This document shows positions 4,534-61,970 of a stretch of 64,000 nucleotides of DNA, in pieces. The stretch covers positions 3,836 to 67,835 of the forward strand of contig CAYLPP010000014.1 of assembly GCA_964385615.1 (NCBI GenBank). The letters are read 5' to 3'. The notes under the pieces are model-generated. The model saw nothing but the letters and a program-made list of their open reading frames with translations. It was not told the DNA's origin and searched no databases. How positions within the stretch are numbered: position 1 is the first letter of the stretch; each line of letters opens with the position of its first letter. Position numbers and translations under genes: made by a program. This stretch comes from an uncultured bacterium (lineage in GTDB: Bacteria > Omnitrophota > Omnitrophia > Omnitrophales > Aquincolibacteriaceae).

Positions 4534-4542
4534 GAAGAAACC

Positions 4543-8655: not shown

Positions 8656-8656
8656 A

Positions 8657-23398: not shown

Positions 23399-26300
23399 CT
23401 AATTTTTAAGTTTCGGGGCAGGCGCCGGAACCGCTCGTTCAATGCCGGACCGCTGAGCTTCTTCCATCACCATCTGTTCGGTTGGAGACTGAGCCGGAAG
23501 CCACTGGCTTTCCCGGCGGCGAACCTGAAGTTCCCGAGCATCAAGAACACGCTGTTTTTCCTGGAGCTGATAGTCCTGACGGCTGAGCCGGGCCTCCCAT
23601 TCGGTGAGTCTGCCCTGCTCTTTTTGCAGTCCGTCCTGAGCCGCGCGCTTGGCACTTTCCAGATCGGCTTCAGACTTTCTCAACGCGGCCCACTCCCCTT
23701 GAATCTGGGTCTGCAGAGCGCTGAGCTGATTTTCACGGCCGGTCAAAGACGCGAAATTACGTTCAAGCTCTTCCCGGCTGTGACTGATCGCGTTATCATA
23801 ATTTCTTTTTTCTTCCGCCGATTTATTTTTCTCCTGCTCAATTTTAGCTTTTGCCAGCTCGAGGGCTTTCAGATTCTGTTCCAGAGACTGTTCACTGGCG
23901 AGCCGGTCTTTTTCCCAGGCTTGTCTGGAAGCATTAAACGTTTCCACATTCTGAAGGTAAACCGCGTTTTGAGTTTCCAGCGCCGCGCGTCTTTTCTCAA
24001 ATTCGTCAGCCTGTTCTCCCAGTTTTTTGCGGGCGGTCTCAAGATCTCCGGCCTTGCTGTCCAAAGCCGTTTGACGCTGATCCAACTCCAGATTCCGGGC
24101 ATCCAGGCTCTGAGCATTCTGGGTTAAAAACGTCTGGGCTTGCTGCATGGCGGATTCCTTGGCGCTCCGCTCCTGAACCCAAGCCTGCTTCTCGGCCGTA
24201 AAAGCCTGCTCTTTTTCTTCCAAAGCTTTTTTCACCTGAGCGTTTTCATTTTCGAGACGCGAAGCTTTGGTTTCACGCTCGGAAACCGCTTTTTCAGCGG
24301 CGGATACCAACTGCTTTTCTGAATCAAGTTTGTTTTTCAATTCAGTTTTTTCAGCTTCCCAGGCCGTTCGAAGCTGATTGAATTCCGTCAACTGCTTTTC
24401 GTAAAGACTCTTATCCCGTTCCAAAGCCGCTTGCTGATTTTTAAACTTGGCCTGTTCCTGTAAAAGCTGATCCTGGCGCGAGGAAAGCTGACTTTTCGCT
24501 TCCTTAAGCATGAGGGTTTCAGATTCCAGCTTTTTCTGTCCTGTCGAAAGAACCGCTTCCCGCTGTTCCAGGTCCTTACTCCGCAAATCCAGAGACTGCG
24601 TCTGATCTTTAATGCGCGTTTCAGCCAGAAGTTTCTCATTTTCAAAACGCTTCCGGTCCTGATCAAGTAATGATTTCAGCTCAGAGGATTTCAAATCAAA
24701 AGCCTGTTTATCGGCGTCCAGAACCCGTCTCTCCTCGCCCAGCTGTTTTTTCTCATCAGATACGGCACGGGCCTTTTGATTCAGCGCGCTTTCACGGACG
24801 TTTAAAGCTTCCTGCCGGGATTCCAGACTGGTTTTAAGCTCTGAAACAGCCTGCTCACGGCCGGCCATTTCCAACGCCTGTGCTTTCTTTTGTTCTTCCC
24901 AAATAGTCTGATCCTGACTGAGCTTCAGAGTCCCGACCTTGAACGCGGCCTCCTCAGCTTCAAATGAACGGATGCGCTCGGCAAGAGAAGCCTGATCGGC
25001 CGCGATTAGGTTCCGGCTATCGGTCATTTTAGCTTCCCATTCCGAACGCATTTTCTCAAATTGGGTTTTCTCAGTTTCTAACTTCTTACGCTCAAGCAAA
25101 AGATCCGCTTTAGCCTGAGAAAGTTCTTTCTGGAGTCCGCTAAGCCGGGCTTCTTTATCAGTTACCGTTTTCTGGCGTTCTTGGAGCTGTGCGTCCAAAG
25201 CCCCAAGCCGGGCTTCTTCACCGCTTTTTTCATTCTGCCAGGCTCTTTTCTCCTCGTTCCAATGAAGTTTGTCATCAGAAAGCTGAGCGCGGGAAGCAGC
25301 AAGTTCCTTATCCTGATCGGCCAATCCCTGAGTCCGCTGATCAAGGCTAAGTTTAAGATTGGCCAGGTCCTGTTTCTGTGAAGCGAACTCTTCTTTACGT
25401 CCCGAAAGTTCGAGCTCCCATTTCTTTTGGGCGGCGTCAAGCTGATCACGGCCCCGTTCCAGCTCCGCGGTTTGAGCGCTCACAGCCGACTCACGGGCTT
25501 CCATGTCTTTTTGCCGCTGATCCAGAGCTTTTCTTTCCTGAGCCAACTTCTCCTTGAGAGGGAGGAGTTTTCCCAGCCGGACTTCAAGATCTCGCTCCTT
25601 ATCCTGAAGCGAACTGTTTCTAGCGGCAAAATCCGCTTCCTGCAAATCCCGGGCTTTTGTCCATGCCAGCTTGTCGTTTTCGTAGGCCGAGATTTTACGG
25701 CCGAACGCGGTCTTCTCTTCCTCAAAAGCTTGCTGGCGTTTTTTCATCTCTTCAACAGATTGAGCCCAGCGGTCGCGGTCAGTCTGAAAAGCAGTTTTTT
25801 CCTGAACCAGCTCGTCACGGAGATTCTCCAACTGTGTTTTTTCGTCTTTGATTTTCATTTTTCCCGCCTCAACAGAACTTGAAAGCTTTTCGAGCCGGGC
25901 CTGTTTTTCTTCTACCTGAGCCTGACGGCTTTGCAGAATCTCCTGATCTTTTATAGATTCTTCTTCGCGTTTTTTTAAAGCTTCTATTTTTTTCTGATAC
26001 TCGCCCAAATCTCGGTCTATCCTCGAGCGAGCCGCGGAAGTTTCATCTTCAGCCTGCTTACGCATCCGCTCAATACCGGCTTTTTCAGCTTCCAGCGCAG
26101 CACGTTCAGACTCCAGACCGCTTTTCTGTTTCTCAAAATCGGTACGCCGGGCTTCAAATTCCCGCTGAAGTGATTCAAAAACCTGCGTCTTTTCCTGTAA
26201 CGCTGTTTCCTCTTCCCCGATCTTCTTCCGGCTCGCTTCAAGCACGGTTTGCTCCTGCGATCTGGCTTTAACCTCGCTTTCAAAAGCCGCCGCGCGGTCC

Positions 26301-28924: not shown

Positions 28925-29110
28925 TGAAAAATGGAGCTTACTCTTTTTGTAGTCAGTGTTTGTGATAATTTTAAATCCTCTCCCCGAAGGATGCTTCATA
29001 CTAGTACAGGGATTATAGGAAGTCAACGCTGTATAGGAGGGCAAAAATGCCTGACCGTAGACGGTATTCCTTAAACCGTCACGGATCAGGTATTTGCATT
29101 TGGATGCAAA

Positions 29111-29183
29111 TGCCCCGGGCCGGAATTGAACCAGCAACCTTATCCTTAGGACGGATCTGCTCTATCCAATTGAGCTACCGGGG
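29111..29183 (-). tRNA. tRNA-Arg(CCU)
   Basis: A manual fold of the reverse complement gives acceptor GCCCCGG/CCGGGGC. The D-arm is GCUCAAUUGGAUAGAGC and the anticodon loop is GUCCUAA, giving anticodon CCU. The T-arm is GCUGG-UUCAAUU-CCGGC, the discriminator is A, and CCA is not encoded. Confidence 0.8.
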
Positions 29184-36951: not shown

Positions 36952-39900
36952 TTAGGCTGAAGCCCCTGTGAGTTCCTGGGCGCGGAGGTAACGGCCCAGC
37001 GTTTCAGAAAGCAGGCTTTGTGCCGTAGGCGTCACAAGCCCGGCGCGGGAAATGTACTCAATACCGACTTTACCCAAAAATTCCGCCATGCGCTGAGTGT
37101 ATTCCTTAACGTGAACCACATCCCCCAGATCACGCTTGAGCTGGACCGCGGCCAAAAGCTGAAGCTGGGTCAGTTGATTCATATATTTAAAGGAAGAGGC
37201 CGGATCCATTTTTTCCAGAACCGCCGGATCGATCAAAAAAGAAGGCAGATGATAAAGGTCTTTGATATTTTCCGGCGCGGATGTCACGGAAACGGAAATA
37301 GCGTCTTTGGAACGGCGTCCGGCAGCCAGAACTTCATCCTGCTGAATAATTTCAAAAACTTTGGAGGCCGGACGGCCCTTGACCCATCGCGCGAGTTCTT
37401 CGGCTCCGCGCCCCGCGAAGTAAACCGCCTTCCCCGCCGGGCTTCCACTCTGCTGGAAACCCTCTTCAAGAAGGTCGAGGTACTGGCTGCGCGCGTCTTC
37501 GGGAATATTCAAAAGCAGTTTCGCCGGAAGCACCGCCGAAGCACCGGCCTTGAAAAGCTTCGAATATCCGGAGGCAAGCTCCGAACGGTCTTCCCCTTGA
37601 ATGAAAATCTCCGTTTTACTTTCCGGGAACATGACACCGTACAACTCGCGCATCACGTCAAGCCCCAGAATTTTCGCGGTCGTCTTTGCGGCAACTTCCA
37701 AAGCCGCGGCTCTCGACTCAGACCGGGCGGACGGCACTTCACCGGAAGATTGCTCGCCCATAATCACCGGTAAAATATCTCCGGCAAAACGCTCAAATTC
37801 CGCCGGTTCAGTCCACTTATGCACCTGCCGGATCTCGCGAATCGGCAGCTCAAGCCGCTGCGGATCAAAACTCTTTATGGTTTGCTTCACGTAAGCATAA
37901 AAATGGTTTCTAACCCAGAAATTCTCATCGCTGTGTTGTTCAATAACCGTCCGCACCGGCCCTAACTGAAAAACCGGGTCTACCGGGAATCTCGCGTCTT
38001 CCCCTCCATAAGCGCGGGCACGCAATCCCTCCACCCTGCCGGCAGGCCCCGCGTATAAATACCCGGGAATCCACAGGACAATCACTTCGTCATCCGCGCT
38101 GAATTTCAACCGTCCGCCGGAAACTTTCGTGAACGCATAAGCAAGAGAACTCTTGCCGGACCTTGATACTCCCGAAAGAATGACCGCGTCTCCCTTCTGA
38201 TTGAATAGAATGTCCGAATGGACAATTTCCATCTTTAGCTGCGCCACGATCTCCGGATATTCTTTACGAATCTTATCCATCCAGCCGGTGACAGCTTCTT
38301 TTAACGCGCCGTTCTCGATACTTCCGGGATTTCCGTCATATAAACCGTTCAGGATTGAATGCACGTATCCCCGATACTGTGTAAATTCAGGACGGCTGAG
38401 AATCTCATAAATCTCTCCGGCTTCCCTAAAAAAAGCATCCGCCCTGCCGGCGGAAATCACGTCAGCCTTCGCGCGCAATTCAGCGCGCGCAGGCGGGTAT
38501 ATTTTCTCAAAAGCGGAAAGCATTTCACCGGCATCTTTATAAAGCCGGTCATCCGGGTTTTCCTTCAGCGCGCCCGCGATAATTTCTGAAAGTTTCTTCA
38601 ATTTATCTTTCGAAATAGCCGCTTCGATCTGCACCTGGTTAGGAAAACTTTCATAAAAGCGGGGAATATCCGCAACGCGGACATCCTCAATCAGCTGATG
38701 CCCTGTCGCTAACTGATAAAGAACAAGCCCCAGGACAAAAACATCCGCGCGGGGATTCACAACCCACACCCCTCGGGTCATTTCAGGCGCTAAATAATCC
38801 AACGTCCCGCGAATAACCTCGTCCGCGGCCATCCCAGGATATAAACTTAGTATCCGGCCTTGTACCTGCGAGAGATTAAAATCAATCAGCTTAAGAGAGC
38901 CGTTTCCGGTAACCATAAAATTGGCCGGCTTCAGATCCCGGTGAACAATTCCCCGAAGATGCGCTTCATGAACCGCCTTCAGAATATTTCTCACGATTTC
39001 AATCAATTTTTCCTCAGTAACCGGATTCAAGTAAAGCCAGTCGAGAAGCGTTTTCCCATCTATGTATTCCATTCCTATAAAAGGAACGGGCACCGTGTCA
39101 TCCGCTTGCGAGGGATACACCTTGACCGCGAACGGATTCTCGCGCCCATTAAAAGGAGCCGCGTAGAGTTCCATCGCTTTACGTTCAAGTTCCGCCATTT
39201 CACGGTAATACCCGCCACTATTTGTATAAATTTTCAGCGCCGCGGTTTTACTTGGATCTGATTTTTCCGTAACCTTATGCACTGTGCCGATACCACCGTC
39301 ACCGCCGATCACACCCCCGGCCTCAAAATCCCGCCCGCCAAACCGGACGTCCGTCCTCAGCTCAGACCTTTTTTGCGTTTCGATTTCAGATAAATGAACG
39401 CGCGCGTATTTTTCAAAATCACCGGGATCCACCATGGACTCATTAACCATCGTGACAGTCCACGGCTCAAGAGCGGTTCCTTCATACCCCGGGAAAATAC
39501 CGGCCATGTACTGTTTCAAATGGCTTTCTCCGGGATTCCTAATAGGCATTTTAAAAGGACCTCCGGAAAGCCGAAACTCCGCTCTCACCAGCCCCACGCC
39601 TAAATAAGATTGATAAGGTATATTATTTTCAGAGTCGTAAGCCCTGGCCCTGAGATTCTCAAAAGAATAAGCGGATCCCGCCAGCAAATGGCCTGGAATG
39701 CGGATCAGATTAATATCATCCGCGGACGCGATTTTAACCCGCCCGTTGGAGACACGGCTGAAAGCGTATCCAAGCGACCCTTTCCCCGATTCACTTTCTC
39801 CGAATAAAAGAACGGCTTCGTTGTTTTCGTTAAAAAGAAGATCGCCGTACATCCGGAAGCTCCGCATGAACGGAACGATATCAGGAAATCTTCCGGAAAT

Positions 39901-42900
39901 TTCCGCGTACCATTTTTGAATTTCTTTTTGAAGTTCCGGATTTTTTTTAAACGCGTAATTATTCTGAGGCAGCCCGTAAATAAAAGACGGCGCCATGTGC
40001 AGAAAGCCGCGGAATTCGGGCCGGTTCAAAATTTCATAAATCCCTTCCAGCGCCTTGGAAAATTCCCTGGCCCTTTCTTCAGTCACCGGCGGAGCTTCAA
40101 TTTTTTTCTCGGCGGAACCGGCGCGCGATTCGGAGCGCGGAGAAACCGTCGTCCTTTCGAAGGGAATGCGCACTGTAATCCGGGTACCCGGCACAAAAGT
40201 CATCAAGGAGGCCGCCTGCTCAAACTCGCCGTCCGCGTTGCGCCGCCAAATCCCTTCTCCCGTAACGATCTCGACAAAATTTCCCACAGTGGAAAGTTTG
40301 CGAAACCCATTGCCCCCATACCATTTCCTCTGGCTTCGTTGCCTCACAACCTCCGGATCTCCGAGACCGTAGCCATTGTCCCAAGCCGTGATTTCCACAA
40401 CAGGCCCGCCTTCCTGCTCAATAACTTTAAAACCCACGGCTCCGCCAAAAGCGTATTCGAGCATATTAAAAATCAATTCATGAATGACTCGGGCCCCGAT
40501 CAGCCATTCCTGGCCAAGCACCTGCTGTTCAAGCCGGTACGCGTCAGAAATAACTGAGAAATAAGGCCCCGTTAAAGCCCGGGAATAAATCGGCAGAGCC
40601 TGATAACCTTCAGCGGTCAAAGCCGCGGCTTTCGGCTCGGCCATCAGCCGCCAACGCTCCGTTTCTTCCGAATCGATCGAACGGAGTTCCGATCTTTTTT
40701 TGACCCATCGTTCTTCATAATATTTTTGAAGCGCTGAGTCCCACTCCCGGACCGTGGAAAACCTTTGCTTGCCGAGCTCGTTTAAATTGGAAAAACGTTC
40801 GTTTACCACTCTAAAAATATCCATTGCGTCCAGTAAACCTGTCGGAGAACTCATGGAGGAAACAGCCCGCGCCAGCAAGGACGCTGAGATAAATCCGGAA
40901 ATCGCTTCACGGTCAGACGTGTACTCATCGCTAAAATCAATAAGGACCGGCTGGTTTTCTTTTGTAATAATGACGTTTCGAGGCTGTAAATCGCCATGCT
41001 CCAGCCCTTCAGCTTCCATAAGCTCCACCGCTTTACCAATCCGCAAAGTCCATTCAACAATCTGCTTTTCAAATTCCTCATCGCTCAAACTTTTCGCGGT
41101 GTAAGCCCACCGTTCCAGATTTTCCCCTTCCGCGTAAAGCCGTTCATACTTCCCGCCCTTTTTCTTCCGGATTCTGGGAAAAACGGGGTTGTCCTGATGC
41201 TTCAAAAGAAAATTGACGATAGGTTTATCCCAATTAATCGGAACCCAGTTCTCTTCCGCGGTGCGTATTTCAGAACGGGCCATGGCGCGCCAGGCCTCAA
41301 ATAATTCCGCGGGATTCGCGTAACGTTCGGCAGGATTAGCGCGGACCGCTTTGGCAATCACAGGCGCGAATTTTTCCCATTCCTTTTCCGCATTCTCTTC
41401 CCGCAAGCGCTGAATTATTTCTGAAGGCGTAAAATTCCTGGAAAGCTTTTCAGCCCGAAGCACTTTTGGGCTGAGTGTTTTAAAAAGCCGGTTCCCGGCA
41501 GCGAGCCAGAAAAGAAGGAGTCCCAGGCTGTAAACTTCCGTTTGCGGTTCCAAAGTACCCGCCGGAGCTTCAGGCGCCGCGAACTGGTCCGTGAAACCCT
41601 TATTCTTACGATTTTGTCCGGCGGGCAGTGCCAGACCAAAATCAATAACCGCGGGCTTGTTTTGAGAAGTCATAATAATATTTTGAGGTTTGATGTCGCC
41701 ATGAAGCACTCCGGCGCGGTAAATTGCCGAATGAGCCGCGAGAATATCTTCAGCGGCTTTTTTTAGATCCACAAAACTTTTTCCTTCTCTCCAGCTGTTA
41801 AGCGGCTGACCTTCCGCAAAATCCATAACCAGAGCCGTATCGCCGTTAATTTCATCATCTCTTTGCGTGACCCGGCCAACACCCAGAACATCAGGCACGA
41901 ATTCCGGGGAAGCTTCATGGGCTTGCTTCATCAGATTAAATTCTTCTTCTTGCGCCTCGAAAGAAATTCCGGAATAGGTGTCATAAACTTTCAAGGCTGT
42001 CTCCCGCCCGCTCACAGTGTCGCGGCCGCGGTAAACCCCGGACAACCCGCCGCCAAACGACTCGCCTCCCGCTTTCGATTCATAAACTCTGCCGGCCAAC
42101 ATGACTTGAACGCGGGACTCAGACCGGGAAATAGCTGCCCGGAACGAGCGGAACATTTCTTCAGCGTCAGCATAACGGGCTGAAGGATCAGGATTGATAG
42201 CCCGGGCAATGACTTTGGCAGCGGGGCCCCAGACATCCAACGCTTCCGTGCTTAAGTCTGAGAGCGCCCTGCGGATCTCCGCCGTGCCGGGAGACTGATT
42301 TTTTTCAATTTTGAGCTTTTCCAAATAGAGAAGCGAGTTAAAATCGCCGTCGCTCGGACTCGAAAAAGGCGGCTTGTGCAAAGCCATCCAGTAAAGAATA
42401 ACGCCAAGGCTGTACACATCAATCCGCGGAGTCAGGACGCCAGAACCTTGAAGCGCTTCCGGCGCGGCAAAAAGGTAGGTCCCCTTAACCCGTGAAAGCG
42501 GTTTCCCGATTCTGCTTCCGAAACGAGCCACGCCAAAATCCAGAATTTTAACTCCGGTATCCGTAATATAAATATTCGCGGGCTTCAGGTCCTGATGCAC
42601 AATTTCAGGATGCAGAGAGGCCGCGGCTTCAAGAACGGAAAGGGCCTGCTCCAACACTTGGGGAGCATCCTTACCCTTCACCCAAGCCGCGAGATCCTGC
42701 CCTTCCAAAAATTCCATGACGATAGACGGCATAGGATCTTCAGGACCGTCAATATGCCCCCACCCAATCACCGCGGGCACATGCTCTTTATCCTTCCGGG
42801 CATATTCAATCAAAGCTCTGTATTCGTTTTTGCTGGCAGCTTCACGGTTCACATATCTGTAAATCTTAACTGCTACCGGATTAGAAGATCCGCCGTCATC

Positions 42901-45900
42901 CTTGTGGGCTTTAAAAACCCAGGCATAACCGCCGGCGCCGGCCAAACTATCCACGGAATACTGCGTCCCGTTGACTGTTAATTTTTTCCCGACAAAAAGC
43001 GACGGGTCATTCAAGGCTTTCGGCCTCAGCTCTTCAGACGCCGCCTGTTCGAGTACCGTTAAAAATTCTTCCGCGTTCCGGTAACGCTTTTCCGGAGCAA
43101 CATCCAGCGCCTTACGCAGGGCCGGAATAAAAGAATGCCAAGTTTCCGGCAAACGCGACGCAAGTTCCTCTTCCGTGACCTGGCGGTTATGTTCCGCTAT
43201 GTAATCCACCGGATTTCCCGCCTGAAAAAGCTTCTGCCCGGAAGCGAGTTCAAAAAGAACTTCGGCCAGCATATAAACATCCGTGGACGGTTCATAAGGC
43301 CCGCTGCCCCTTGTGAAAATTTCAGGAGCCATGTAGGCGGGTGTTCCGGTAATTTTCCAGGAAGCTTTAACCGGCATTGTCTTTGTGCCGATCTGAGAGG
43401 TCATGAAATCCAGTATTTTCACCTTCCCGGCGGGAGTCACCAAAAAATTCCAGGGTTTAATATCCAGATGCACCACAGGCTCATTGAGCATATGCAAAGA
43501 AGCAACCGCCCTGGCGGTTTTCAAAGCAACGCGGATTTTTTCCGCGTCCGGCTTCCCTTCAGCCCACGCGGCCAGAGTTTCCCCCTGAATATATTCCATT
43601 GCGATCGCGGAATATCCGTTACCGCTGTCAAGACCAGCACCATAAAATTCAGGCACATACAAATTACTAGCTGACGCGGCTTGCATAACTTTGACTTCGT
43701 GGGAGACCAGAGAGCGGAGAAATTCAGGATCGTTTAAAAGATGCGACGGGATGATTTTGACGGCAATATCCGGTTGACCGGAAGCTGAGGCCAGATAGAC
43801 CTCTCCTCCCGCACCGCTGTCAAGAAACCGGGTCAATGTATAAACTTTACTACCGAATCTTTTAAGTTCGATTTTTTTTCCTAAATAGGCAGGCGCAGGG
43901 GTTGTCGCCCGGACCTCAGAGCGCACAGGCGGAGAAAAAACATCCGGGGGAAGTTCCGCGCTGAGAACCTCCAGCAATTCTCCGGCATCCTGAAAACGCT
44001 TTTTCGGATCCGGATCAAGCGCCTTACGCAAAATTTTACCGACCTTCTCTTTAAGCTCTTTTTCCAGAGGAAGCCGGTCTTCAAGATCCGCTTGAGGCAG
44101 CGGTTTTTTACGCTCCTGCCCCAGCTTGGCGTATTGCCCTTCCCGTTCTTGTTCCGGCGTCAGAGCAAACAGCCTTTGCCCGGTCAAAACCTCAAAAATA
44201 CTCGCGCCAAGAAGGTAAACGTCCGTTGCCGGAGTGTAAGGCCCGGTTCCATTAAAAAACATTTCCGGCGCCATGTAGGCGGGCGTTCCGCGGACATCCG
44301 TGTTCCGCTCCGAAGGCGCGGGCTTCCTGCCGATCTGACTGTAAGTAAAATCCAGAATCTTAACTTTCCCCGCGGCCGTAACAAACAGATTGGAGGGTTT
44401 TAAATCCAGATGAACCACTTTGTTTCGATGCATCATCGAAGCCGCGCGGACAACATTCACTGACATCGAAAGTTTTTGCGGTAAGGAAGCGTTCTCTTCC
44501 GCCCACTTTTTCAGACTTTCGCCCTCCAAAAACTCCATGGCGATTAATGAAAAAGAGTCCTGGGAAAAGCCAATTTTGGATCCATAAAACATGGGAACAT
44601 ATTCATTGTCTTTTCCCGCGGCCCGGAGCGCCTGAACTTCATGCTTAATCTGACTCTCTCTCAAAGCGCGCCGGCGGCGGCCTTGATCGCTGAAAACCTT
44701 AACGGCTATCGAAGGAAATCGAGCGGGGTCCACGGAAACGGGAACCGCGCGGTAAACACGGCCGTTCCCTTCTTTGTCCAGCATGGACTCCAAACGGTAC
44801 TTCGCTGAGCGAGTATGAACAATAACACCCAAAAAGCCGGAGTGACGCTTCCAGAGCTGCACTCTGCTTTTCTGAAGTGTTCCCGCGGGCCATTCGATAA
44901 AACCTTGTTTAGGATGCCGGTATTGAAAACCGGTTGGCGTCCGCTGGCGCAGAATCGCGCGGGAAACATCAATCCGGGTTCCCCCTCCGCTGGCTTCTAT
45001 AAGCGTTTGGGCCAACTGCATCAACGCTTTGCCGATTCCCTCGACTAACTCTAAGTCGCTGATATGAACCACCATCCCGGGGCTGCCGGATTCTAATCCC
45101 GGAATTTCCGAAACCCACGGGAAAGGACCTGCCCACTTTTCTCCCTCCGGGTCAATTTGCGCGGAGTAGGTATTGTCCTTATTCCTTTTCATGAGGATAT
45201 CGATAAACCCGGCCGGATTTCGCCCTCCATCGGCAGTCCGCCGGAAAGCCGTTACACGAAACGCGATTTCGGGGGGTTTCTGTCCGGCAGGAATATCCGC
45301 AGGAACCGGTCTTTGCTTCCAGCTGAATCCATAAAAAATCCGGTAGGGCTCTTCAACTTTCCGAATTTGTCCGCCGGCCGAAACCGCGGTTGAAGTGTCC
45401 GCTTCTTTTTCCTTCGCGGCAACCACCATGGGGCGAGTCATTCTTTCCTGGCGGGTGCTCCTCAAATCCGTGTTGAACCTGTTGGCTTTTAAAATCTGCC
45501 ACCAGACATCTTTAATTTCACTTTCAATTTCAATAATTTTCGCGGCTTCCGCGGATTTCGCGGGATAAGCGGCGGCAATCACCTGCAGTTTCAGGCAAAT
45601 ATCCGGAAGAGCTCCATCCATCCAGAATAAAATCCCGCCCCATCCCGCTTTGATGCCGGCAGGCGTGCGGTAAATCCCCTGAGTAGTCCGCTGGGAGTTC
45701 CGGAAAGCAAAACCCGCGTAGGTTGTATCCAGAAAACGGCCGAATTCCTTTTCAAATTCCTGAATGTTTCCCCGGCGAAGATGAAGATAAAGAATTTGCT
45801 GCTGAACCTGCATGGGGAAAAACCCCACTCCGTCAACCTTTTGAAGCGCTTTCAAAAGCAAAAGCACGCGGTCATAAATTCTGTCAGCCTGAAATTTATC

Positions 45901-48774
45901 CCCCGAACTTTGATAAAAAAAAGCGATCTCGCTCAGCTCATTGATGTAGCCGGAAATCTCCGCGCGGATATCGGGCATAAACACAGGCTTTTTCTCCGCC
46001 TCCGCCAGCCGAAGATTAAAAGCTTCACGGCTTTCATAACCGGTAATTCCCAGCCCTTGATAAATAGCCCACTCCTGATCCGTAGCTTGCGCCATCTCTC
46101 TGAGTGTTTCAAGTTCCGGATATTTCAGAAGCCTCATTTTTTCATCCGCCTGCTTGGAAGCGAGATTAATCAGTCCCGGATTTTCGCCGGAGTCGCCGTA
46201 AAGCATATCGTCGAGCTCCCCGTGCGGAATTTCGGAAATATCCTTCCCCTGATACTCCGCTTTTTGAGGCCCGAGATCCTGCCAGTTTTTCTCGTCGTAG
46301 ATTCGGATAATCCGGGAAGTTTCATACATCAGCTCGTCCCTGCGGGCTTCTACCGACGCGCGTTTTGAGGCTTTATTTGTTTTCTCAGCATTCCGGACAA
46401 ACGCGATTCTCTTGAGAATACTGGAAGCATCCGCAAGCGAAGAGGCCGCCCTCGGTGCCGGTAAACCGGCACCGCCCGCGTAAAGATCATCTCCCGCCAT
46501 CCGGAGATGCGTTCTCCAGTGGTAACTTGTTTTTCTTTTTTGGAGATCCTCGTAAATTTCCCCAAAAATCTCGGGTAAAAGCCCGCGATTCTCATTTTCA
46601 TACGTCATCGATTCAACTTCACTGTGGTAAGCCAGCATTAAATCCGCCGCACGCATCAGATACAAGCCAACCAGCGCCTGATCAATTTTAGAATCCGGAT
46701 TAAGCATTTTTAGAAATTCCATTGAAAAAAGGATGGCGTTGCGCCGGTAGGAAACCTGGAGGGTTTTCTCAAAAAGATCGTCCGGCCTGTCGTCCTCATA
46801 AAACAGAACCGTCGGGAGCTGCATGGCCAGAATAAAAACATTTTTCCTGAGCCACTCAAGCGTGGATTTATGCGATTCTTGAACGGCCGTTTCAAGATAA
46901 GCCAGGGCGTGTTCAATCATTCTTTCCGGCTGAGCTTTCCTCCCGCCTTCTTCAGGCAAAACGCCTGGGTCGGATTCCAACGGATCATTCTCATAGTACG
47001 CTTCGGAATTTAACGCGGGCGGAGGGCTGTAAAGGCGGTAGCGATTTTTAACATTGATCGAAAGAGGAAGCATTTTCCCCCCGTAATCAGGCAAAAGATG
47101 TTCCGCGGATCCGTCTTTATGGGCCGAGCGCAATTCTGCCCGGGCGGGTGAAGCCCCTTTGGAAATTCCATAATCGGTAATTTGTCTTCGAATTTCCGCG
47201 CGCGCGGTTTGAAGCGCTGACGGCCAGGCTTCATCGTCCATCATCCACTGCGGAACGCGGACGGCGGACGCCCCAAAATCGAGTTTGCGGTTTTTTCCGT
47301 TCATCGCGTCGCCGTATTTGCGGGAATCCTCGATCTGACTCAAATGGGGCATGATCACGGCGTAAGAAATTTTCCGCTCCCGGAATTGCCTGCAGAGACC
47401 TTCAGTGTGAAAACCGCCCGCGATCACGGCCGCGGGTTTCTTATCCCCGGCCAGAAGGCTTAAAATTTCGCGCCCCATGGTTTCATCACGCTGATTTGCC
47501 AGATCGTAAAACCTGGATGCTTTTCCGTAAACTTCGCGGAGATCCGCCGGCAGAACGGTTTCAAGGCCGGTTCTCGAATCTTGATTCCAAAGTCGGTATT
47601 CCGCAGATGTCACTGAAAGCGAAAGGATTTTCCGAAGTTTCAGCCACTGTCTGAATTTCTCGAGAAGCGCCTGAGCCCGGCTTTCCGAGGCCAGCTTTTG
47701 AAGAACCTGCTCCCGTAATTTTTCCATTTCTTCCATCAGGACACGGGCTTCAATCTCTCCGCTCAAAATCTGAAATCCTTCAAAAACAAAAAAATCAGGA
47801 TACTCTTCAAAGCGGAATCCTTTAGAAGAGGCCTGGCTGTAAAAGCGTTCCCAGGATTCCCGGAGCCCGGATGTTTCCGGGATTCCGCCGTTTTCTTTTT
47901 GAAGCGGAAGTATTTTCTCCATCTTGTTCTTTGCGGCCCACGCCGAAAGTTTTTCTTTCTGCGTTTCCGCCTTCTTGGCGTTTATCAGGGGCTGACGCCG
48001 TTTCAGCTCAAAAAAACGGACCAGCATCGGCCACTCTAACTGCGCGCGCGCATTCCCTAAATCCAACTGAAGAATTTTCTGGGCCTGCCCTTCAAGTTCC
48101 GATAGATAAACCGGAAGCGGAATTTTTTCGTCTTCGAAACCCGACCATATCCGAAAAAATTCAAAAAGCTCTTTTGAAAAAACCCGGGAAGCTTCCTTAC
48201 TGATTTCAGAAAACTTCTTTTCAAGGCCCGCGCTTATCCGGTCTTTTTGAGAGGATATTTCCTGATAGAGCTGAAAGTTTTCAAGATAAAGCGGAAGGTC
48301 TTCAGTACCGTAAGCCGTCACAAACTCGCGGTTCCGAAGCGTGAACCTCTCGGCACCGCCGATTTCAGCTTCACGCATCAGCGTACCGGCAATTTCAAGA
48401 TTCAGCGCGCCGTTATCAAAAAAGGTCAGGCGTGAGGGATCAAGCCGTCCGGCACCTCCCTCAATAAAAAGAGAGTTTAATCCGCGGTTGGCTTTTAAAA
48501 ATTCCAACAAGCCGTCGGTACTTTTCTGCGCTTCATACTGCCCATGCGCGTCAGGAATGATAAAAAGAGAAGGATTTTCCCCGAAAGTTTCCATCAAGGT
48601 TCCAAGTTCAGGCGGGATGGCTGGAGAGTTTTCAGAGGTTTTGACCTCTCCCAGAGGACGGTCGAAAAGGATTTCCGGAGCAGTCCAAGCGGGTTGACTG
48701 CCGACATAAAAAAGGAGCGTAAAAAAAGCAACGCCCCGCCGAAAGCTAAAATAACGTAAGTGGTTGATTTTCAT
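36952..48774 (-). CDS. Giant 3,940-aa multi-kinase protein. It has a signal peptide or signal anchor and a ~1,300-aa unknown N-region. It contains 6 Hanks-type Ser/Thr kinase domains, a GHKL ATPase domain, 2 HprK/P-like P-loop modules and a 340-aa unknown C-region
   Basis: It is one uninterrupted ORF. The kinase catalytic loops and DFG-type motifs read from the translation are HLDLKPSN/DFT, HLDIKPWN/DFM, HQDLKPAN/DFG, HGDIKPQN/DFG, HGDLQPRN/DFS and HRDLKPAN/DFN. The VAIK-type lysines are IAVKVF, IAVKII, VAVKIY, TALKVY and AALKIY. APE motifs are present. The GHKL motifs are NMLEYAFGG…ITAWDNGYGLG. The HprK-like Walker A and downstream motifs are GESESGKGSLGYAF…ASADD and GVSRSGKSSLAYAF…SADDE. 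I verified codon positions for HRD (38941-38943) and DNG (40369-40377) on the DNA. Confidence 0.85.
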   Translation of the reverse strand: MKINHLRYFSFRRGVAFFTLLFYVGSQPAWTAPEILFDRPLGEVKTSENSPAIPPELGTLMETFGENPSLFIIPDAHGQYEAQKSTDGLLEFLKANRGLNSLFIEGGAGRLDPSRLTFFDNGALNLEIAGTLMREAEIGGAERFTLRNREFVTAYGTEDLPLYLENFQLYQEISSQKDRISAGLEKKFSEISKEASRVFSKELFEFFRIWSGFEDEKIPLPVYLSELEGQAQKILQLDLGNARAQLEWPMLVRFFELKRRQPLINAKKAETQKEKLSAWAAKNKMEKILPLQKENGGIPETSGLRESWERFYSQASSKGFRFEEYPDFFVFEGFQILSGEIEARVLMEEMEKLREQVLQKLASESRAQALLEKFRQWLKLRKILSLSVTSAEYRLWNQDSRTGLETVLPADLREVYGKASRFYDLANQRDETMGREILSLLAGDKKPAAVIAGGFHTEGLCRQFRERKISYAVIMPHLSQIEDSRKYGDAMNGKNRKLDFGASAVRVPQWMMDDEAWPSALQTARAEIRRQITDYGISKGASPARAELRSAHKDGSAEHLLPDYGGKMLPLSINVKNRYRLYSPPPALNSEAYYENDPLESDPGVLPEEGGRKAQPERMIEHALAYLETAVQESHKSTLEWLRKNVFILAMQLPTVLFYEDDRPDDLFEKTLQVSYRRNAILFSMEFLKMLNPDSKIDQALVGLYLMRAADLMLAYHSEVESMTYENENRGLLPEIFGEIYEDLQKRKTSYHWRTHLRMAGDDLYAGGAGLPAPRAASSLADASSILKRIAFVRNAEKTNKASKRASVEARRDELMYETSRIIRIYDEKNWQDLGPQKAEYQGKDISEIPHGELDDMLYGDSGENPGLINLASKQADEKMRLLKYPELETLREMAQATDQEWAIYQGLGITGYESREAFNLRLAEAEKKPVFMPDIRAEISGYINELSEIAFFYQSSGDKFQADRIYDRVLLLLKALQKVDGVGFFPMQVQQQILYLHLRRGNIQEFEKEFGRFLDTTYAGFAFRNSQRTTQGIYRTPAGIKAGWGGILFWMDGALPDICLKLQVIAAAYPAKSAEAAKIIEIESEIKDVWWQILKANRFNTDLRSTRQERMTRPMVVAAKEKEADTSTAVSAGGQIRKVEEPYRIFYGFSWKQRPVPADIPAGQKPPEIAFRVTAFRRTADGGRNPAGFIDILMKRNKDNTYSAQIDPEGEKWAGPFPWVSEIPGLESGSPGMVVHISDLELVEGIGKALMQLAQTLIEASGGGTRIDVSRAILRQRTPTGFQYRHPKQGFIEWPAGTLQKSRVQLWKRHSGFLGVIVHTRSAKYRLESMLDKEGNGRVYRAVPVSVDPARFPSIAVKVFSDQGRRRRALRESQIKHEVQALRAAGKDNEYVPMFYGSKIGFSQDSFSLIAMEFLEGESLKKWAEENASLPQKLSMSVNVVRAASMMHRNKVVHLDLKPSNLFVTAAGKVKILDFTYSQIGRKPAPSERNTDVRGTPAYMAPEMFFNGTGPYTPATDVYLLGASIFEVLTGQRLFALTPEQEREGQYAKLGQERKKPLPQADLEDRLPLEKELKEKVGKILRKALDPDPKKRFQDAGELLEVLSAELPPDVFSPPVRSEVRATTPAPAYLGKKIELKRFGSKVYTLTRFLDSGAGGEVYLASASGQPDIAVKIIPSHLLNDPEFLRSLVSHEVKVMQAASASNLYVPEFYGAGLDSGNGYSAIAMEYIQGETLAAWAEGKPDAEKIRVALKTARAVASLHMLNEPVVHLDIKPWNFLVTPAGKVKILDFMTSQIGTKTMPVKASWKITGTPAYMAPEIFTRGSGPYEPSTDVYMLAEVLFELASGQKLFQAGNPVDYIAEHNRQVTEEELASRLPETWHSFIPALRKALDVAPEKRYRNAEEFLTVLEQAASEELRPKALNDPSLFVGKKLTVNGTQYSVDSLAGAGGYAWVFKAHKDDGGSSNPVAVKIYRYVNREAASKNEYRALIEYARKDKEHVPAVIGWGHIDGPEDPMPSIVMEFLEGQDLAAWVKGKDAPQVLEQALSVLEAAASLHPEIVHQDLKPANIYITDTGVKILDFGVARFGSRIGKPLSRVKGTYLFAAPEALQGSGVLTPRIDVYSLGVILYWMALHKPPFSSPSDGDFNSLLYLEKLKIEKNQSPGTAEIRRALSDLSTEALDVWGPAAKVIARAINPDPSARYADAEEMFRSFRAAISRSESRVQVMLAGRVYESKAGGESFGGGLSGVYRGRDTVSGRETALKVYDTYSGISFEAQEEEFNLMKQAHEASPEFVPDVLGVGRVTQRDDEINGDTALVMDFAEGQPLNSWREGKSFVDLKKAAEDILAAHSAIYRAGVLHGDIKPQNIIMTSQNKPAVIDFGLALPAGQNRKNKGFTDQFAAPEAPAGTLEPQTEVYSLGLLLFWLAAGNRLFKTLSPKVLRAEKLSRNFTPSEIIQRLREENAEKEWEKFAPVIAKAVRANPAERYANPAELFEAWRAMARSEIRTAEENWVPINWDKPIVNFLLKHQDNPVFPRIRKKKGGKYERLYAEGENLERWAYTAKSLSDEEFEKQIVEWTLRIGKAVELMEAEGLEHGDLQPRNVIITKENQPVLIDFSDEYTSDREAISGFISASLLARAVSSMSSPTGLLDAMDIFRVVNERFSNLNELGKQRFSTVREWDSALQKYYEERWVKKRSELRSIDSEETERWRLMAEPKAAALTAEGYQALPIYSRALTGPYFSVISDAYRLEQQVLGQEWLIGARVIHELIFNMLEYAFGGAVGFKVIEQEGGPVVEITAWDNGYGLGDPEVVRQRSQRKWYGGNGFRKLSTVGNFVEIVTGEGIWRRNADGEFEQAASLMTFVPGTRITVRIPFERTTVSPRSESRAGSAEKKIEAPPVTEERAREFSKALEGIYEILNRPEFRGFLHMAPSFIYGLPQNNYAFKKNPELQKEIQKWYAEISGRFPDIVPFMRSFRMYGDLLFNENNEAVLLFGESESGKGSLGYAFSRVSNGRVKIASADDINLIRIPGHLLAGSAYSFENLRARAYDSENNIPYQSYLGVGLVRAEFRLSGGPFKMPIRNPGESHLKQYMAGIFPGYEGTALEPWTVTMVNESMVDPGDFEKYARVHLSEIETQKRSELRTDVRFGGRDFEAGGVIGGDGGIGTVHKVTEKSDPSKTAALKIYTNSGGYYREMAELERKAMELYAAPFNGRENPFAVKVYPSQADDTVPVPFIGMEYIDGKTLLDWLYLNPVTEEKLIEIVRNILKAVHEAHLRGIVHRDLKPANFMVTGNGSLKLIDFNLSQVQGRILSLYPGMAADEVIRGTLDYLAPEMTRGVWVVNPRADVFVLGLVLYQLATGHQLIEDVRVADIPRFYESFPNQVQIEAAISKDKLKKLSEIIAGALKENPDDRLYKDAGEMLSAFEKIYPPARAELRAKADVISAGRADAFFREAGEIYEILSRPEFTQYRGYVHSILNGLYDGNPGSIENGALKEAVTGWMDKIRKEYPEIVAQLKMEIVHSDILFNQKGDAVILSGVSRSGKSSLAYAFTKVSGGRLKFSADDEVIVLWIPGYLYAGPAGRVEGLRARAYGGEDARFPVDPVFQLGPVRTVIEQHSDENFWVRNHFYAYVKQTIKSFDPQRLELPIREIRQVHKWTEPAEFERFAGDILPVIMGEQSSGEVPSARSESRAAALEVAAKTTAKILGLDVMRELYGVMFPESKTEIFIQGEDRSELASGYSKLFKAGASAVLPAKLLLNIPEDARSQYLDLLEEGFQQSGSPAGKAVYFAGRGAEELARWVKGRPASKVFEIIQQDEVLAAGRRSKDAISVSVTSAPENIKDLYHLPSFLIDPAVLEKMDPASSFKYMNQLTQLQLLAAVQLKRDLGDVVHVKEYTQRMAEFLGKVGIEYISRAGLVTPTAQSLLSETLGRYLRAQELTGASA

Positions 48775-49010: not shown

Positions 49011-49313
49011 TTAAACGGAAACCTGGTTTTTGATTTTCTCGTACTTCGCTTCTCCAATGCCCCGCACTTGAACCAGTTCATCGGCTTTTTTAAAACCGCC
49101 GTTGGCCTGGCGAAACTCCACAATGCGGTGAGCGATCGCAGGACCGATTCCATGAAGAGTTTGAAGCTCTTCAGGGCCGGCAGTGTTAATATTCACCGCC
49201 TTGGCCTGCGCCTCCACCGCGGGAGCCGCGTGCAGAATGGAAAAGTTATACAGATAACCCGTTCCGATCATCAGAACCGCGATCAGAAAAGTTTTCATGG
49301 TCTTTTTCATCAT
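49011..49313 (-). CDS. comEA: ComEA-family competence protein (helix-hairpin-helix DNA-binding)
   Basis: 100 aa with a signal peptide. It carries tandem HhH motifs (NINTAGPEELQTLHGIGPAIAHRIVEFR…VRGIGEAKYEKI). Confidence 0.85.
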   Translation of the reverse strand: MMKKTMKTFLIAVLMIGTGYLYNFSILHAAPAVEAQAKAVNINTAGPEELQTLHGIGPAIAHRIVEFRQANGGFKKADELVQVRGIGEAKYEKIKNQVSV

Positions 49314-49415
49314 GGCTTATTACCTCCTTTCTTTTCTTTACACGGCTCTTTTTATAAACATCCCCGTCTCAAGACTCAAAAGGTTTTTGCCTTAAAATTA
49401 AAAATAATATGAATT

Positions 49416-50012
49416 ATGCACATATTTCCCGTTGACACCCGCGGTGTGCGCACATACCATCCTGTCATGCTCGAATATTTAGGCCCCAAAATCAGGAATC
49501 TGCGCAGAGAAAAAGGACTGACGCTCGTGGAAATCGCCGGCAAAACCGGAATCGCGCAGGCGACCCTTTCGAGGATTGAAACCGGAACCATGATCGGCAC
49601 GGTTGAGAGCCACGTCAAAATCGCGGAAGTCCTGGGAGTTCCTCTCGCGGAACTTTATACGGACCCGGACACTTCTTGTTCGCGGGTTTCGCACACCCCG
49701 GCCCACAAAACGGCTCATCACGGGAAAAGTATTCAGAGGGAAATGCTCACTCCGGAGTATCCGCCAAAAAAAATGAGCCCTGTGCTGACGGTACTTCAGC
49801 CGAATACGGAAACTCCTGAAGAACGGGCGCCGAAAGGAACCGAAAAATTCATTTATCTGATTCAGGGTGAAGTCATGGTCAAAACAGGCGGTGAATCTTT
49901 CACGCTCACGCCCGGAGAGAGTCTTTATTTTGAAGCCTCTCCGGCTCATCAGGTAAAAAACGTTTCTTCCTCCCCCGCGCATTTTCTGAGCGTGACCTGC
50001 CAAGCAAAATAA
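49416..50012 (+). CDS. XRE-family HTH transcriptional regulator with C-terminal cupin domain
   Basis: The HTH is LTLVEIAGKTGIAQATLSRIETG. The cupin beta-barrel is in the C-terminal half (…IYLIQGEVMV…GESLYFEASPAHQV). An alternative start at the ATG at 49467 (MLEYLGPK) fits a TTGACA-N17-TACCAT promoter at 49432-49460. Confidence 0.8.
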   Translation: MHIFPVDTRGVRTYHPVMLEYLGPKIRNLRREKGLTLVEIAGKTGIAQATLSRIETGTMIGTVESHVKIAEVLGVPLAELYTDPDTSCSRVSHTPAHKTAHHGKSIQREMLTPEYPPKKMSPVLTVLQPNTETPEERAPKGTEKFIYLIQGEVMVKTGGESFTLTPGESLYFEASPAHQVKNVSSSPAHFLSVTCQAK

Positions 50013-59180: not shown

Positions 59181-59736
59181 TCCCGGGCTGAGCCTTAATG
59201 CCCTTATGGTAAGGATGCTTAACGCATTTCATTTCCGTCACAAGATCCGCGAGCTCCACGATTTCTTCCGGCGCCCCGCCTCCGGTCAGAAAAACATGCT
59301 TCAAGGCCGGTTTCTTTTTAAGTTCCGCGGCAATTTCGGCGGCAGGCAGGAAATTGTATTTCATGACGTAATTGATCTCGTCAAAAATGACCAGCTGATG
59401 TTCTTCATCATGCAGAAGTTCTTTGCATTTTTCCCAGGCGCTGCGGGCCGTCTTAACGTCCTGCTCAAAATTCTGCGTGTCCCAGGTGAATCCTTCTCCC
59501 ATGACAAAATGTTTGAACTGATCGCCGAAAAGCTTGAAGGATTTTTCTTCGCCGGTCTTCCATTTCCCCTTAATGAACTGCACCATGGCGACTTTGTAGC
59601 CCCGGCCCAGTGCGCGCACCGCCGTGCCGAAAGCGGCGGTGCTTTTACCTTTACCGTCGCCGGTATTGACCAGAATCAATCCTTTCTTCTGGTATTCACC
59701 GGAAGTCTTATGACCGCGGGGCGCTTTATCTTCCAT
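59170..59736 (-). CDS. cobO: Cob(I)yrinic acid a,c-diamide adenosyltransferase (CobO/BtuR type)
   Basis: 188 aa. The P-loop-like motif is NTGDGKGKSTAAFG and the size fits CobO/BtuR. Confidence 0.85.
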   Translation of the reverse strand: MEDKAPRGHKTSGEYQKKGLILVNTGDGKGKSTAAFGTAVRALGRGYKVAMVQFIKGKWKTGEEKSFKLFGDQFKHFVMGEGFTWDTQNFEQDVKTARSAWEKCKELLHDEEHQLVIFDEINYVMKYNFLPAAEIAAELKKKPALKHVFLTGGGAPEEIVELADLVTEMKCVKHPYHKGIKAQPGIEY

Positions 59737-61639: not shown

Positions 61640-61970
61640 TCTTCCTCCAGAGACAGGATGGAAGCCGGGGCTAAAGACAGAACACGCGGGCTTTTTCTCT
61701 GCTCGGAGACTTGGACAGGCAGTTCTTCTGGCTAGGTGACCTTAATGCTTTTCCTACTTGCAGGCCTTCCCAAAACCTTTCGGTCTCAGTGGCTTTTACC
61801 TGATCCTATGATCAGGTACGTCAAACAGCGGCCTTGAAGGTCGTCTGCTTGACGTCTGCTTTCGTTGTCACCAACAGCGGCGGCACCGCGGGGTCTATGA
61901 AGTTACCTCTCTTCATAGCCCACTTCCCTATTAAGCCCGGCCCTGAGGCACAGGCACCTGCGGAAAATTG
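61640..61970 (-). promoter_or_regulatory. Cobalamin (B12) riboswitch with SD-sequestering expression platform, leader of btuB-cob operon
   Basis: The minus-strand RNA contains …GGUGCCUGUGCC…UUAAUAGGGAAGUGGG…GCCGCUG… and the B12-box GCCACUG (plus strand CAGTGGC at 61787-61793). Near the start codon, CUUCCAUCC can pair with the GGAGGAAG Shine-Dalgarno sequence 18 nt upstream of the btuB AUG. Confidence 0.75.

Follow-up and report, generated by a model that had tools for sequence, protein, structure and literature searches.

What would a bacterium do with a single protein that strings six kinase-like domains together behind a signal peptide? The gene that raises this question is an open reading frame (ORF) of 11.8 kb on the minus strand of the window studied here, a stretch of 64,000 nucleotides from an uncultured bacterium of the Omnitrophota (contig CAYLPP010000014.1, assembly GCA_964385615.1). 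The Omnitrophota are a phylum of very small bacteria, widespread but uncultivated and probably dependent on hosts, and giant multi-enzyme ORFs are one of their signatures. A sequence-only reading of the window had presented the gene as the most unusual object there, and had overlooked both of the features that organise it: a strict pentapeptide, R-S/A-E-x-R (RSExR), which punctuates the chain, and an N-terminal hydrolase domain of the TIKI fold (the N-domain). The protein is one member of an Omnitrophota family of modular giants, a general class that has already been described. Judging from sequence comparisons, the several kinases that it combines are what one clade carries as cargo, within a family of punctuated, predicted-exported modular giants that spans the phylum. 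Multi-enzyme giants of the Omnitrophota were known; the junction motif and the N-domain are new, in that they were not found described in the literature searched.

A pentapeptide between the modules

The pattern R[SA]ExR occurs 11 times in the giant protein against 0.26 copies expected (0.48 for the wider pattern [RK][SA]ExR). Nine copies stand at junctions between unrelated modules: the N-domain and the region at amino acids (aa) 550-1317, kinase modules K1 and K2, K3 and K4, K4 and K5, K5 and a GHKL-like module, the latter and a first HprK-like module (HprK-1), HprK-1 and K6, K6 and a second such module (HprK-2), and HprK-2 and the C-terminal module. A tenth doubles the first junction, and the last, an RAEFR at aa 3064 inside HprK-1, is probably no junction. 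From N- to C-terminus, with a slash marking the predicted cut in the signal peptide and pLDDT standing for predicted local distance difference test, the layout is:

36952..48774, minus strand: whole giant ORF, 3,940 aa; positional ortholog of the proteins P0010 (4,507 aa) and P0006 (3,379 aa)
48685..48774, minus strand: Sec-type signal peptide (aa 1-30); basic K2, R7, R12 and R13, 12-residue core GVAFFTLLFYVG, likely signal-peptidase I site AWT/AP
47203..48681, minus strand: N-domain (aa 32-524), hydrolase of the TIKI/Ere/ChaN/TraB/RRSP fold with a ~320-aa helical insertion between the core halves
47128..47142, minus strand: junction RAELR (aa 545-549), with a second copy, RAEIR, 20 aa upstream (aa 525-529, nucleotides 47188-47202)
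44824..47127, minus strand: region without assigned domain (aa 550-1317), conserved in the ortholog P0010 only (43% identity, jointly with K1); no motif before K1
43924..44823, minus strand: kinase 1, Hanks-type (K1, aa 1318-1617); AVK, HLDLKPSN, DFT, APE
43909..43923, minus strand: junction RSEVR (aa 1618-1622)
42127..43908, minus strand: kinases 2 and 3 (K2, aa 1623-1925; K3, aa 1926-2216); HLDIKPWN and DFM, HQDLKPAN and DFG
42112..42126, minus strand: junction RSESR (aa 2217-2221)
41278..42111, minus strand: kinase 4 (K4, aa 2222-2499); ALK, HGDIKPQN, DFG, APE
41263..41277, minus strand: junction RSEIR (aa 2500-2504)
40696..41262, minus strand: kinase-like module 5 (K5, aa 2505-2693); HGDLQPRN, DFS; 68% identical to the P0010 module
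40681..40695, minus strand: junction RSELR (aa 2694-2698)
40138..40680, minus strand: probable GHKL ATPase module (aa 2699-2879), a weak assignment; N box HELIFNMLEYA, G1 DNGYG, G2 GGNGF; 59% identical to the P0010 module
40123..40137, minus strand: junction RSESR (aa 2880-2884)
39370..40122, minus strand: HprK/P-fold P-loop module 1 (HprK-1, aa 2885-3135); Walker A variant GESESGKGS, ASADD, RARAY
39355..39369, minus strand: junction RSELR (aa 3136-3140)
38488..39354, minus strand: kinase 6 (K6, aa 3141-3429); ALK, HRDLKPAN, DFN, APE
38473..38487, minus strand: junction RAELR (aa 3430-3434)
37726..38472, minus strand: HprK/P-fold P-loop module 2 (HprK-2, aa 3435-3683); Walker A GVSRSGKSS, SADD, RARAY; modelled with AlphaFold2 and compared with Foldseek
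37711..37725, minus strand: junction RSESR (aa 3684-3688), a segment of pLDDT <50 between two well-folded model domains
36955..37710, minus strand: C-terminal module (aa 3689-3940), alpha/beta then helical, ending ...ELTGASA; 48-55% identical in two orthologs

The codons of the motif vary synonymously from site to site, which argues for selection on the peptide and not on the DNA. The same variation speaks against the motif being a DNA or RNA signal, be it a recombination site or an internal Shine-Dalgarno sequence with a start codon (x is often M, V or L), and so does the Ala or Ser found as x at many sites.

Across 27 ORFs of the family, 249 instances of the motif were counted in 85 thousand aa (kaa), with unconserved flanks. 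In percent, their pooled logo reads R97, S89-A11, E100, V31-L20-M18-A16-I6 and R, the search pattern itself having restricted the first position to R or K and the last to R. In the family RSE[VLMAI]R occurs 2.35 times per kaa, against 0.06 for the remaining ORFs of the same DNA, and among near variants RSDxR and RTExR are never seen in the family and RSExK four times. Whole Pfam domains fall exactly between motifs: in one relative (locus L015) a complete phosphoglucose isomerase (PGI; 758 bits, aa 2082-2582) lies between motifs at 2019 and 2591, and the glutamate dehydrogenase (GDH) module of another (L013, aa 1809-2254) has no internal motif. P0015 (4,626 aa), a distant member with N-domain and HprK-like module, has no RSExR at all; ten copies of A[AS]SLG occupy its equivalent junctions (aa 571-4328), one of them directly before the HprK-like module, a hint that the junction code has changed in that lineage. 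No relevant publication came up in literature searches for the motif strings or for bacterial polyproteins.

At the junction of K2 and K3 (aa 1918-1925, window position ~43000) a degenerate AASEELRPK is found in the place of the motif. This site could be a decayed motif, leaving K2 and K3 as one two-kinase unit.

A TIKI-fold hydrolase at the N-terminus

What stands in front of all these modules is a domain with the alpha/beta core of the TIKI/Ere/ChaN/TraB superfamily. Comparison figures were 9.5 for EreC, 9.4 for the Ere-like BcR135/136, 9.3 for ChaN, 8.6 for HopBA1, 8.2 for a TraB-family protein and 7.7 for RRSP, an effector of the MARTX toxins; Foldseek agreed weakly with a TIKI-type fold. 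No Pfam model reached threshold, ChaN giving a weak, sub-threshold match over the GGFHT motif. Four homologs of the domain came from a word-indexed search and more from giant proteins, and all of them begin with a signal peptide.

Across 10 divergent homologs D75, H77, E105, R429 and H456 are invariant. The catalytic set of RRSP consists of E3900, H3902, E3930 and H4030, together with R4001 (PMC6254334). The N-domain follows the same order, acid-x-His...Glu...Arg...His, with a His-to-Glu spacing of 28 in both proteins. The two differ in the gap between Arg and His (27 in the N-domain, 29 in RRSP), and the N-domain differs from the superfamily in its first acid, which is Asp instead of Glu, and in its helical insertion. 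Because pattern and spacing match those of RRSP, the N-domain is very likely an active hydrolase of the TIKI superfamily, a group that includes two site-specific endopeptidases (Tiki and RRSP) and also esterases.

Signs of export

The N-terminal signal proposed in the sequence-only reading holds on inspection: the protein starts with the n-, h- and c-region layout of a Sec signal peptide. All members of the family have a basic n-region, a hydrophobic core of 11-15 residues and an AxA-type site (VWA/SP, VWA/AP, AFA/A and the like), and the giant protein has no further segment hydrophobic enough for a membrane span.

To this is added a scarcity of cysteine, which makes up 0.09% of the pooled family against 0.68% in the window's other genes. 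There are two Cys in the 3,940 aa of the window protein and none in P0008 (7,439 aa) or P0009 (3,561 aa), and the PGI module (L015:9896-21652) and GDH module (L013:9986-21676) mentioned above, both in giants that bear a signal peptide, have one each. Proteins that have to pass through an oxidising compartment or an outer membrane in an unfolded state, such as autotransporter passengers, two-partner secretion exoproteins and RTX toxins, are typically poor in cysteine. We take its removal from ordinary cytoplasmic-type enzymes as a separate clue that these enzymes would leave the cytoplasm. The earlier idea of a secreted multi-kinase effector agrees with the family-wide signal peptide, the lack of other membrane segments and the depletion of cysteine.

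A family across the Omnitrophota

The same frame (Sec signal peptide, N-domain, motif-punctuated modules and usually a C-terminal Ala) is shared by more than 25 giant ORFs. When one genome per species was scanned for the N-domain with the three closest sequences as queries, 23 loci were found, and all the taxonomically named ones belong to Candidatus Omnitrophota. At 20 of the 23 the ORF led by the N-domain holds 1-19 motifs, and at 14 of these it stays open for >3,800 aa, up to the end of the fetched DNA. The window protein has everything that marks this RSExR-punctuated N-domain family: the signal peptide, the TIKI-fold N-domain, a high density of the motif and the depletion of cysteine.

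What varies is the cargo. Other members carry PGI, GDH, pseudouridine synthase and carbamate-kinase-like modules, and also PGM and HEAT repeats; outside the sub-clade of the window protein, kinase cargo is found only as a single module in P0008 and in the closest relative, L003. Kinases are what one sub-clade carries; they do not define the family. Nor is the HprK-like module a universal core, as three complete ORFs (L010, L012 and L022) lack it and it does not appear in the first ~3,900 aa of the other loci.

At locus L019 two punctuated giants stand in tandem (2-3010 and 3356-15127, both on the plus strand): the upstream ORF runs off the start of the contig, has five RSE[AV]R and ends in ...FQQISKAA, and the downstream one has its own signal peptide and N-domain. 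Ala is the last residue in 12 of 14 complete C-termini (among the 14 are P0005, P0006, P0008-P0013, P0015, L012, the L019 upstream ORF and the short P0007), where it follows a predicted helix (...ASA, ...RSA, ...QAA, ...RAA, ...KAA, ...QMA, ...TMA, ...IQA). We take this ending to resemble the small non-polar C-terminal tags read by tail-specific proteases of the Prc/Tsp type. A C-terminal domain common to the whole family was considered and rejected: only the three orthologs, and separately the pair P0011 and P0013, could be aligned there, and the terminal ...xA is shared more widely.

The closest comparison is with the two positional orthologs. In P0010, P0006 and the window the order of genes is the same: TonB-dependent receptor, cob genes, tonB, comEC, XRE-cupin regulator, comEA, the giant gene, glyQ, glyS, ppdK, rpoD and a phosphoribosyltransferase; the longer contig of P0010 runs on into a protein of ~1,900 aa, as the window does. 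Inside this fixed frame the giants differ in the number and order of their modules:

window protein: 6 kinase, 2 HprK-like and a probable GHKL module
P0010: 5 kinase, 1 HprK-like, a GHKL-like and an HExxH-containing module
P0006: 2 kinase and 1 HprK-like module, and a repeat block

Common to the three are the N-domain (40-42% identity) and the C-terminal module (48-55%). With P0010 the window protein further shares the region at aa 550-1317 with K1 (43%), K5 (68%) and the GHKL module (59%), and with P0006 it shares HprK-1 (58%). The extra HExxH module of P0010 (locus L026; aa 3951-4237, YMHEFGHIAD) matches nothing in Pfam and has no counterpart in the window protein.

The kinase and P-loop cargo

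Pfam Pkinase (PF00069) matches six stretches of the giant protein (E=1e-147, 491 bits against a gathering threshold of 31.7 bits). Six Ser/Thr kinase domains in tandem had been proposed; the number stands, but K5 is atypical and K6 lies between the two HprK-like modules, so that not all are in tandem. When all six are aligned, K1-K4 and K6 keep the beta3 Lys, the alphaC Glu, HxD-[LI]-K-P-x-N, the Asp of DFx and APE. K5 has neither the glycine loop of the N-lobe nor the beta3 Lys, its catalytic loop reads HGDLQPRN (Q for K) and its catalytic set is incomplete, which makes five canonical kinases and one atypical. Even in its truncated, atypical form K5 keeps its 68% identity to the P0010 module, which argues that it is under selection. 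The five predicted-intact kinases would, by their residues, have Ser/Thr-kinase activity.

In these complete catalytic residues they are like the bacterial Hanks-type kinases, and their NCBIfam similarity extends to PknB-type kinases and to the Legionella effector kinase LegK1, the scores for named equivalogs staying under the cut-offs with the sole exception of the summed PknB score. Unlike typical members of that group, the giant protein has no PASTA or other sensor domains and no transmembrane (TM) helix between kinase and sensor. It differs from the secreted effector kinases LegK, YpkA/YopO and OspG in having six copies per chain and a Sec signal peptide in the place of a type III or type IV secretion signal.

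The two P-loop modules are paralogs (34% identity, E=4e-37). A profile of both found 12 matches at E<=0.001 among 1.84 billion cluster representatives, nearly all of them giant proteins, and these sequences served as the alignment for an AlphaFold2 model of the second copy, which has a pLDDT >90 across the module. When the model was compared with the PDB by Foldseek, the best 24 matches were all the HprK/P catalytic domain (E 6e-6 to 6e-4, target TM-score <=0.66), followed by phosphoenolpyruvate carboxykinase (PEPCK), which shares its fold, so that the HprK/P-like call holds at the level of the fold. At the level of the sequence it does not: the isolated segments had no Pfam match to Hpr_kinase_C or Hpr_kinase_N at E<=10, and a profile search of PDB sequences gave no HprK/P. 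The paralogy and fold of the earlier proposal are thus confirmed, the C-terminal HprK/P signature that it named is not. Presumably the Walker A pattern G-x-S-x-x-GK[S/G]S and the conserved acidic pair SADD ~20 residues further on correspond to HprK/P motifs; the window modules differ in an invariant RARAY motif of their own and in a ~90-aa helical N-terminal extension that stands in for the HprK/P N-domain. As far as the model goes, the resemblance is limited to the fold and the Walker-A/Asp motifs, and strict family membership and substrate do not follow from it. No HPr gene was seen within the 64-kb window.

An HprK-like module also occurs behind a signal peptide in P0016 (1,111 aa), outside the N-domain family. 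By eye this protein has a PP2C-phosphatase-like region, which, if right, hints that the module belongs to Ser/Thr phospho-signalling.

The remaining module is probably a GHKL ATPase. Its N, G1 and G2 boxes can be discerned by eye and are also conserved in the ortholog, and HATPase_c (PF02518) matches the isolated segment with 23.4 bits (E=8e-5), under the gathering threshold of 26.4 bits; it gives no match with the full-length protein or with the copy in P0010. A two-sequence profile found Hsp90 N-domains as the best PDB match over G1 and G2, at E~0.3 only, the module alone gave nothing useful against PDB sequences, and the profile had no match in a word-indexed search. The RsbW/SpoIIAB subtype, to which the module had been assigned, finds no support: no such family is in the Pfam lists or among the best 25 of 33 NCBIfam matches, and there is no STAS domain in the giant protein or the scanned neighbouring genes. 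Of the three kinase folds first proposed, two-thirds are solid, namely Hanks and the HprK/P fold, and GHKL stays below threshold.

A polyprotein, or something else?

How can punctuation, hydrolase, export signal and kinases be brought together? The interpretation we favour, with about an even chance of being right, is that the gene encodes a Sec-exported modular polyprotein which would be cut at RSExR, possibly by its own N-domain, and so free Ser/Thr-kinase effectors. The architecture would then be that of a cleavable signal peptide, a TIKI/RRSP-fold hydrolase, independently folding cargo modules joined by flexible linkers that bear R-S/A-E-x-R, and a C-terminal module ending in Ala. The chain would cross the inner membrane unfolded, which would explain its near absence of cysteine; the RSExR sites would be cut by the N-terminal hydrolase or by a specialised protease whose gene lies elsewhere; and the freed kinases and their partners would act where ATP is available, most plausibly inside the host or prey cell of an epibiotic or predatory lineage. 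We infer all of these steps: that the protein is exported and cut at the motif, which protease does this, that the products reach another cell and that the kinases are active. Our confidence falls from Sec export, through the reading of RSExR by a sequence-specific macromolecule, most simply a protease, and the N-domain being that protease, to the kinases acting in another cell.

Several observations weigh against the polyprotein interpretation. Two junctions (the aa 550-1317 region with K1, and K2 with K3) have no motif, Ser gives way to Ala in 11% of sites, and in the window protein x is often Ser, which is atypical of the family. The N-domain stands alone in P0002 (505 aa) and with a single HD domain and no motif in P0003, so that processing of a polyprotein in cis would not be its sole role; TIKI-fold proteins also include the Ere esterases and the haem binder ChaN, and we know of no TIKI-fold peptidase with specificity for Arg. 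The signal peptide was assigned by inspection, not by a predictor. No secretion machinery or dedicated protease is linked to the locus, its conserved neighbours (comEC, XRE-cupin regulator, comEA, glyQS, ppdK, rpoD) having been considered for such a role and rejected. Enzymes that depend on ATP or NAD would, outside the cytoplasm, need a further and unexplained delivery step, and housekeeping cargo of the PGI/GDH type in relatives could equally mean metabolism of the cell itself.

The strictness of the motif shows recognition by some macromolecule, which need not be a protease, and RSExR might be a docking or recognition motif, or a linker element, of an unprocessed exported scaffold: a periplasmic or surface 'coat' or multi-enzyme array. 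Published readings of Omnitrophota giants favour such surface-associated multi-enzyme assemblies, and an N-domain that occurs without any motif fits them too. Yet we know of no docking motif that recurs 10-19 times in disordered linkers, each time exactly where two unrelated domains meet, ATP-dependent kinases would be idle outside the cell, and some inter-motif modules are so short (under 50-100 aa) that they resemble released peptides more than units of a scaffold, so that we think this explanation unlikely. Somewhat less likely still is a cytoplasmic or membrane-tethered signalling megaprotein, with an N-terminus that is an anchor or not functional and modules that regulate the cell's own physiology, with or without processing in the cytoplasm. 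All the cargo consists of classic cytoplasmic enzymes that require ATP, PGI and GDH are among the modules of relatives, the gene belongs to a housekeeping block that is conserved across three genomes, with glyQS 42 bp downstream, and 46% of long Omnitrophota proteins were described as membrane-anchored and facing the cytoplasm (10.64898/2026.06.07.730766). The positive-inside rule, however, puts the basic N-flank in the cytoplasm and the remainder outside, the hydrophobic core is only 12 residues long and, like that of every homolog, leads into an AxA-type site, and a 7-fold depletion of cysteine (0 Cys in 7,439 aa) is hard to reconcile with cytoplasmic enzymes.

Could the motif instead be a phospho-acceptor, with the kinases or HprK-like modules of the same protein phosphorylating its Ser and so regulating linker conformation or processing? 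Ser occupies 89% of sites, in a basic and acidic context, and the protein has several Ser/Thr-kinase folds, but 11% of sites have Ala and none has Thr, there is no kinase module in the motif-dense L013 and L015 (first ~3,900 aa) or in P0009, and the complete, motif-bearing L010, L012 and L022 lack an HprK-like module; we regard the idea as improbable. That the ORF is an artefact, with adjacent genes fused by an assembly chimera or by sequencing errors, seems very improbable indeed. The exact protein is found on a single NCBI contig, and a Logan contig from an independent assembly, 100% identical, is limited to 35531-37752 and so covers the 3′ end alone; JGI metagenomes gave no match to exact 36-mer and C-terminal-module searches, which leaves the middle of the gene without a second assembly. 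Against this, 11.8 kb remain free of stops at 50% GC, the syntenic orthologs of 3,379 and 4,507 aa share the structure of the frame, more than 20 related ORFs stay open for >3,800 aa, and the junction motifs are in frame and conserved. Two separate assemblies give an identical P0010, which speaks against chimerism in such genes.

Comparison with known systems

Giants of the Omnitrophota are known as 'Archaeovorins', with PGI, TPI, PGM and HEAT domains (West-Roberts et al. 2023, 10.1101/2023.11.21.568195), and as 'multi-enzyme' and regulatory 'Module 1' long proteins with methyltransferase, HATPase_c, GNAT, HAD and HD domains (10.64898/2026.06.07.730766). The family described here is like the Archaeovorins in its phylum and in an N-terminal signal followed by concatenated cytoplasmic-type enzyme domains, and relatives of the window protein share with them PGI, PGM, HEAT and GDH cargo. 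The window protein itself differs in being ten times shorter (3.9 kaa, not at least 30,000 aa), in having no internal TM helices where Archaeovorins have many, and in a cargo dominated by Ser/Thr kinases. Term searches of the Archaeovorin and 2026 papers found no mention of an inter-module motif, a TIKI/Ere/TraB-like N-domain, an HprK-like module or cysteine depletion.

A second parallel is that with the MARTX toxins, likewise very large secreted proteins with interchangeable effector modules, one of which, RRSP, shares fold and catalytic residues with the N-domain. MARTX modules are freed by proteolysis in the linkers between effectors, and their sets vary between strains; the toxins are exported by type I secretion, have glycine-rich repeats and are cut after Leu by a cysteine protease domain activated by inositol hexakisphosphate (InsP6). 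None of these parts (RTX or glycine-rich repeats, Peptidase_C80, a C-terminal type I secretion signal) is in the Pfam and NCBIfam match lists of the giant protein, which has instead an N-terminal Sec signal and a defined pentapeptide. The TIKI-fold domain is N-terminal in every member of the family, and not one cargo among many as in MARTX.

Cleavage of Omnitrophota giants had already been suspected, 'information about cleavage points' being lacking, and the analysis of one study was blocked by this. A strict pentapeptide at module boundaries provides candidate cut sites and makes the long-suspected processing testable; it is also a rule by which giants can be dissected module by module for structure prediction, and the N-domain is a candidate for the protease. 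If cleavage is real, the system would count as a rare bacterial counterpart to viral polyproteins and to MARTX toxins, made of different parts, and the version in the window would deliver a battery of Ser/Thr kinases, pointing to manipulation of phospho-signalling in another cell. It is tempting to go further and imagine a polyprotein system of the Omnitrophota: a Sec-exported precursor with its own TIKI/RRSP-type maturation peptidase and a pentapeptide code (RSE[VLMAI]R, or A[AS]SLG in one member) that would free shuffled enzymes onto or into host or prey. Its cargo would include kinases, glycolytic and RNA-modifying enzymes, with the window gene as its 'kinase cocktail' version; we offer this wider picture tentatively, as possible but doubtful.

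The locus and its neighbours

The frame of 3,940 codons is, as first reported, uninterrupted: a single open frame with its stop codon and zero ambiguous bases. Its GC (0.49-0.53) is that of its flanks, as had been said. The housekeeping setting described for it is equally borne out, with glyQ (42 bp away), glyS, ppdK, rpoD and the phosphoribosyltransferase downstream and comEA, the divergent XRE-cupin regulator, comEC, tonB and cobalamin genes upstream, and the presence of syntenic orthologs in two other genomes agrees with a locus that is not obviously mobile. More than 1,600 aa had been described as having no recognisable domain; ~490 of these are now the N-domain, and the region at aa 550-1317 (~770 aa) and the C-terminal module of 250 aa are still without assignment. 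A search of PDB sequences with aa 550-1320 gave nothing useful, and a word-indexed search with aa 3430-3940, that is HprK-2 and the C-terminal module, found no match.

Directly upstream of the giant gene (window 49011..50012) lie comEA, for a helix-hairpin-helix protein of 100 aa, and the divergent regulator, of a helix-turn-helix/cupin type (XRE-HTH). The pair is kept beside the giant gene in L003, L004, L006, L025, L026 and L028, and shows no sign of a functional tie to the giant protein.

Elsewhere in the window, an ORF of 1,912 aa (23399..29137, minus strand) has no Pfam match and 0.10% Cys, with a hydrophobic segment at ~aa 70-90 of the open frame followed by coiled-coil-like sequence rich in E, K, L, A and Q. 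The start of the frame is overlapped by a tRNA-Arg(CCT) at 29111-29184, which places the true start further in; the contig of P0010 has a counterpart of ~1,885 aa at the equivalent position. A cobalamin riboswitch (61701..61976, minus strand; 39 bits against a cut-off of 31.5 bits) precedes an ORF of 629 aa at 59736..61625, in whose position the orthologous contigs have a TonB-dependent receptor, and is followed by genes of cobalamin salvage and biosynthesis.

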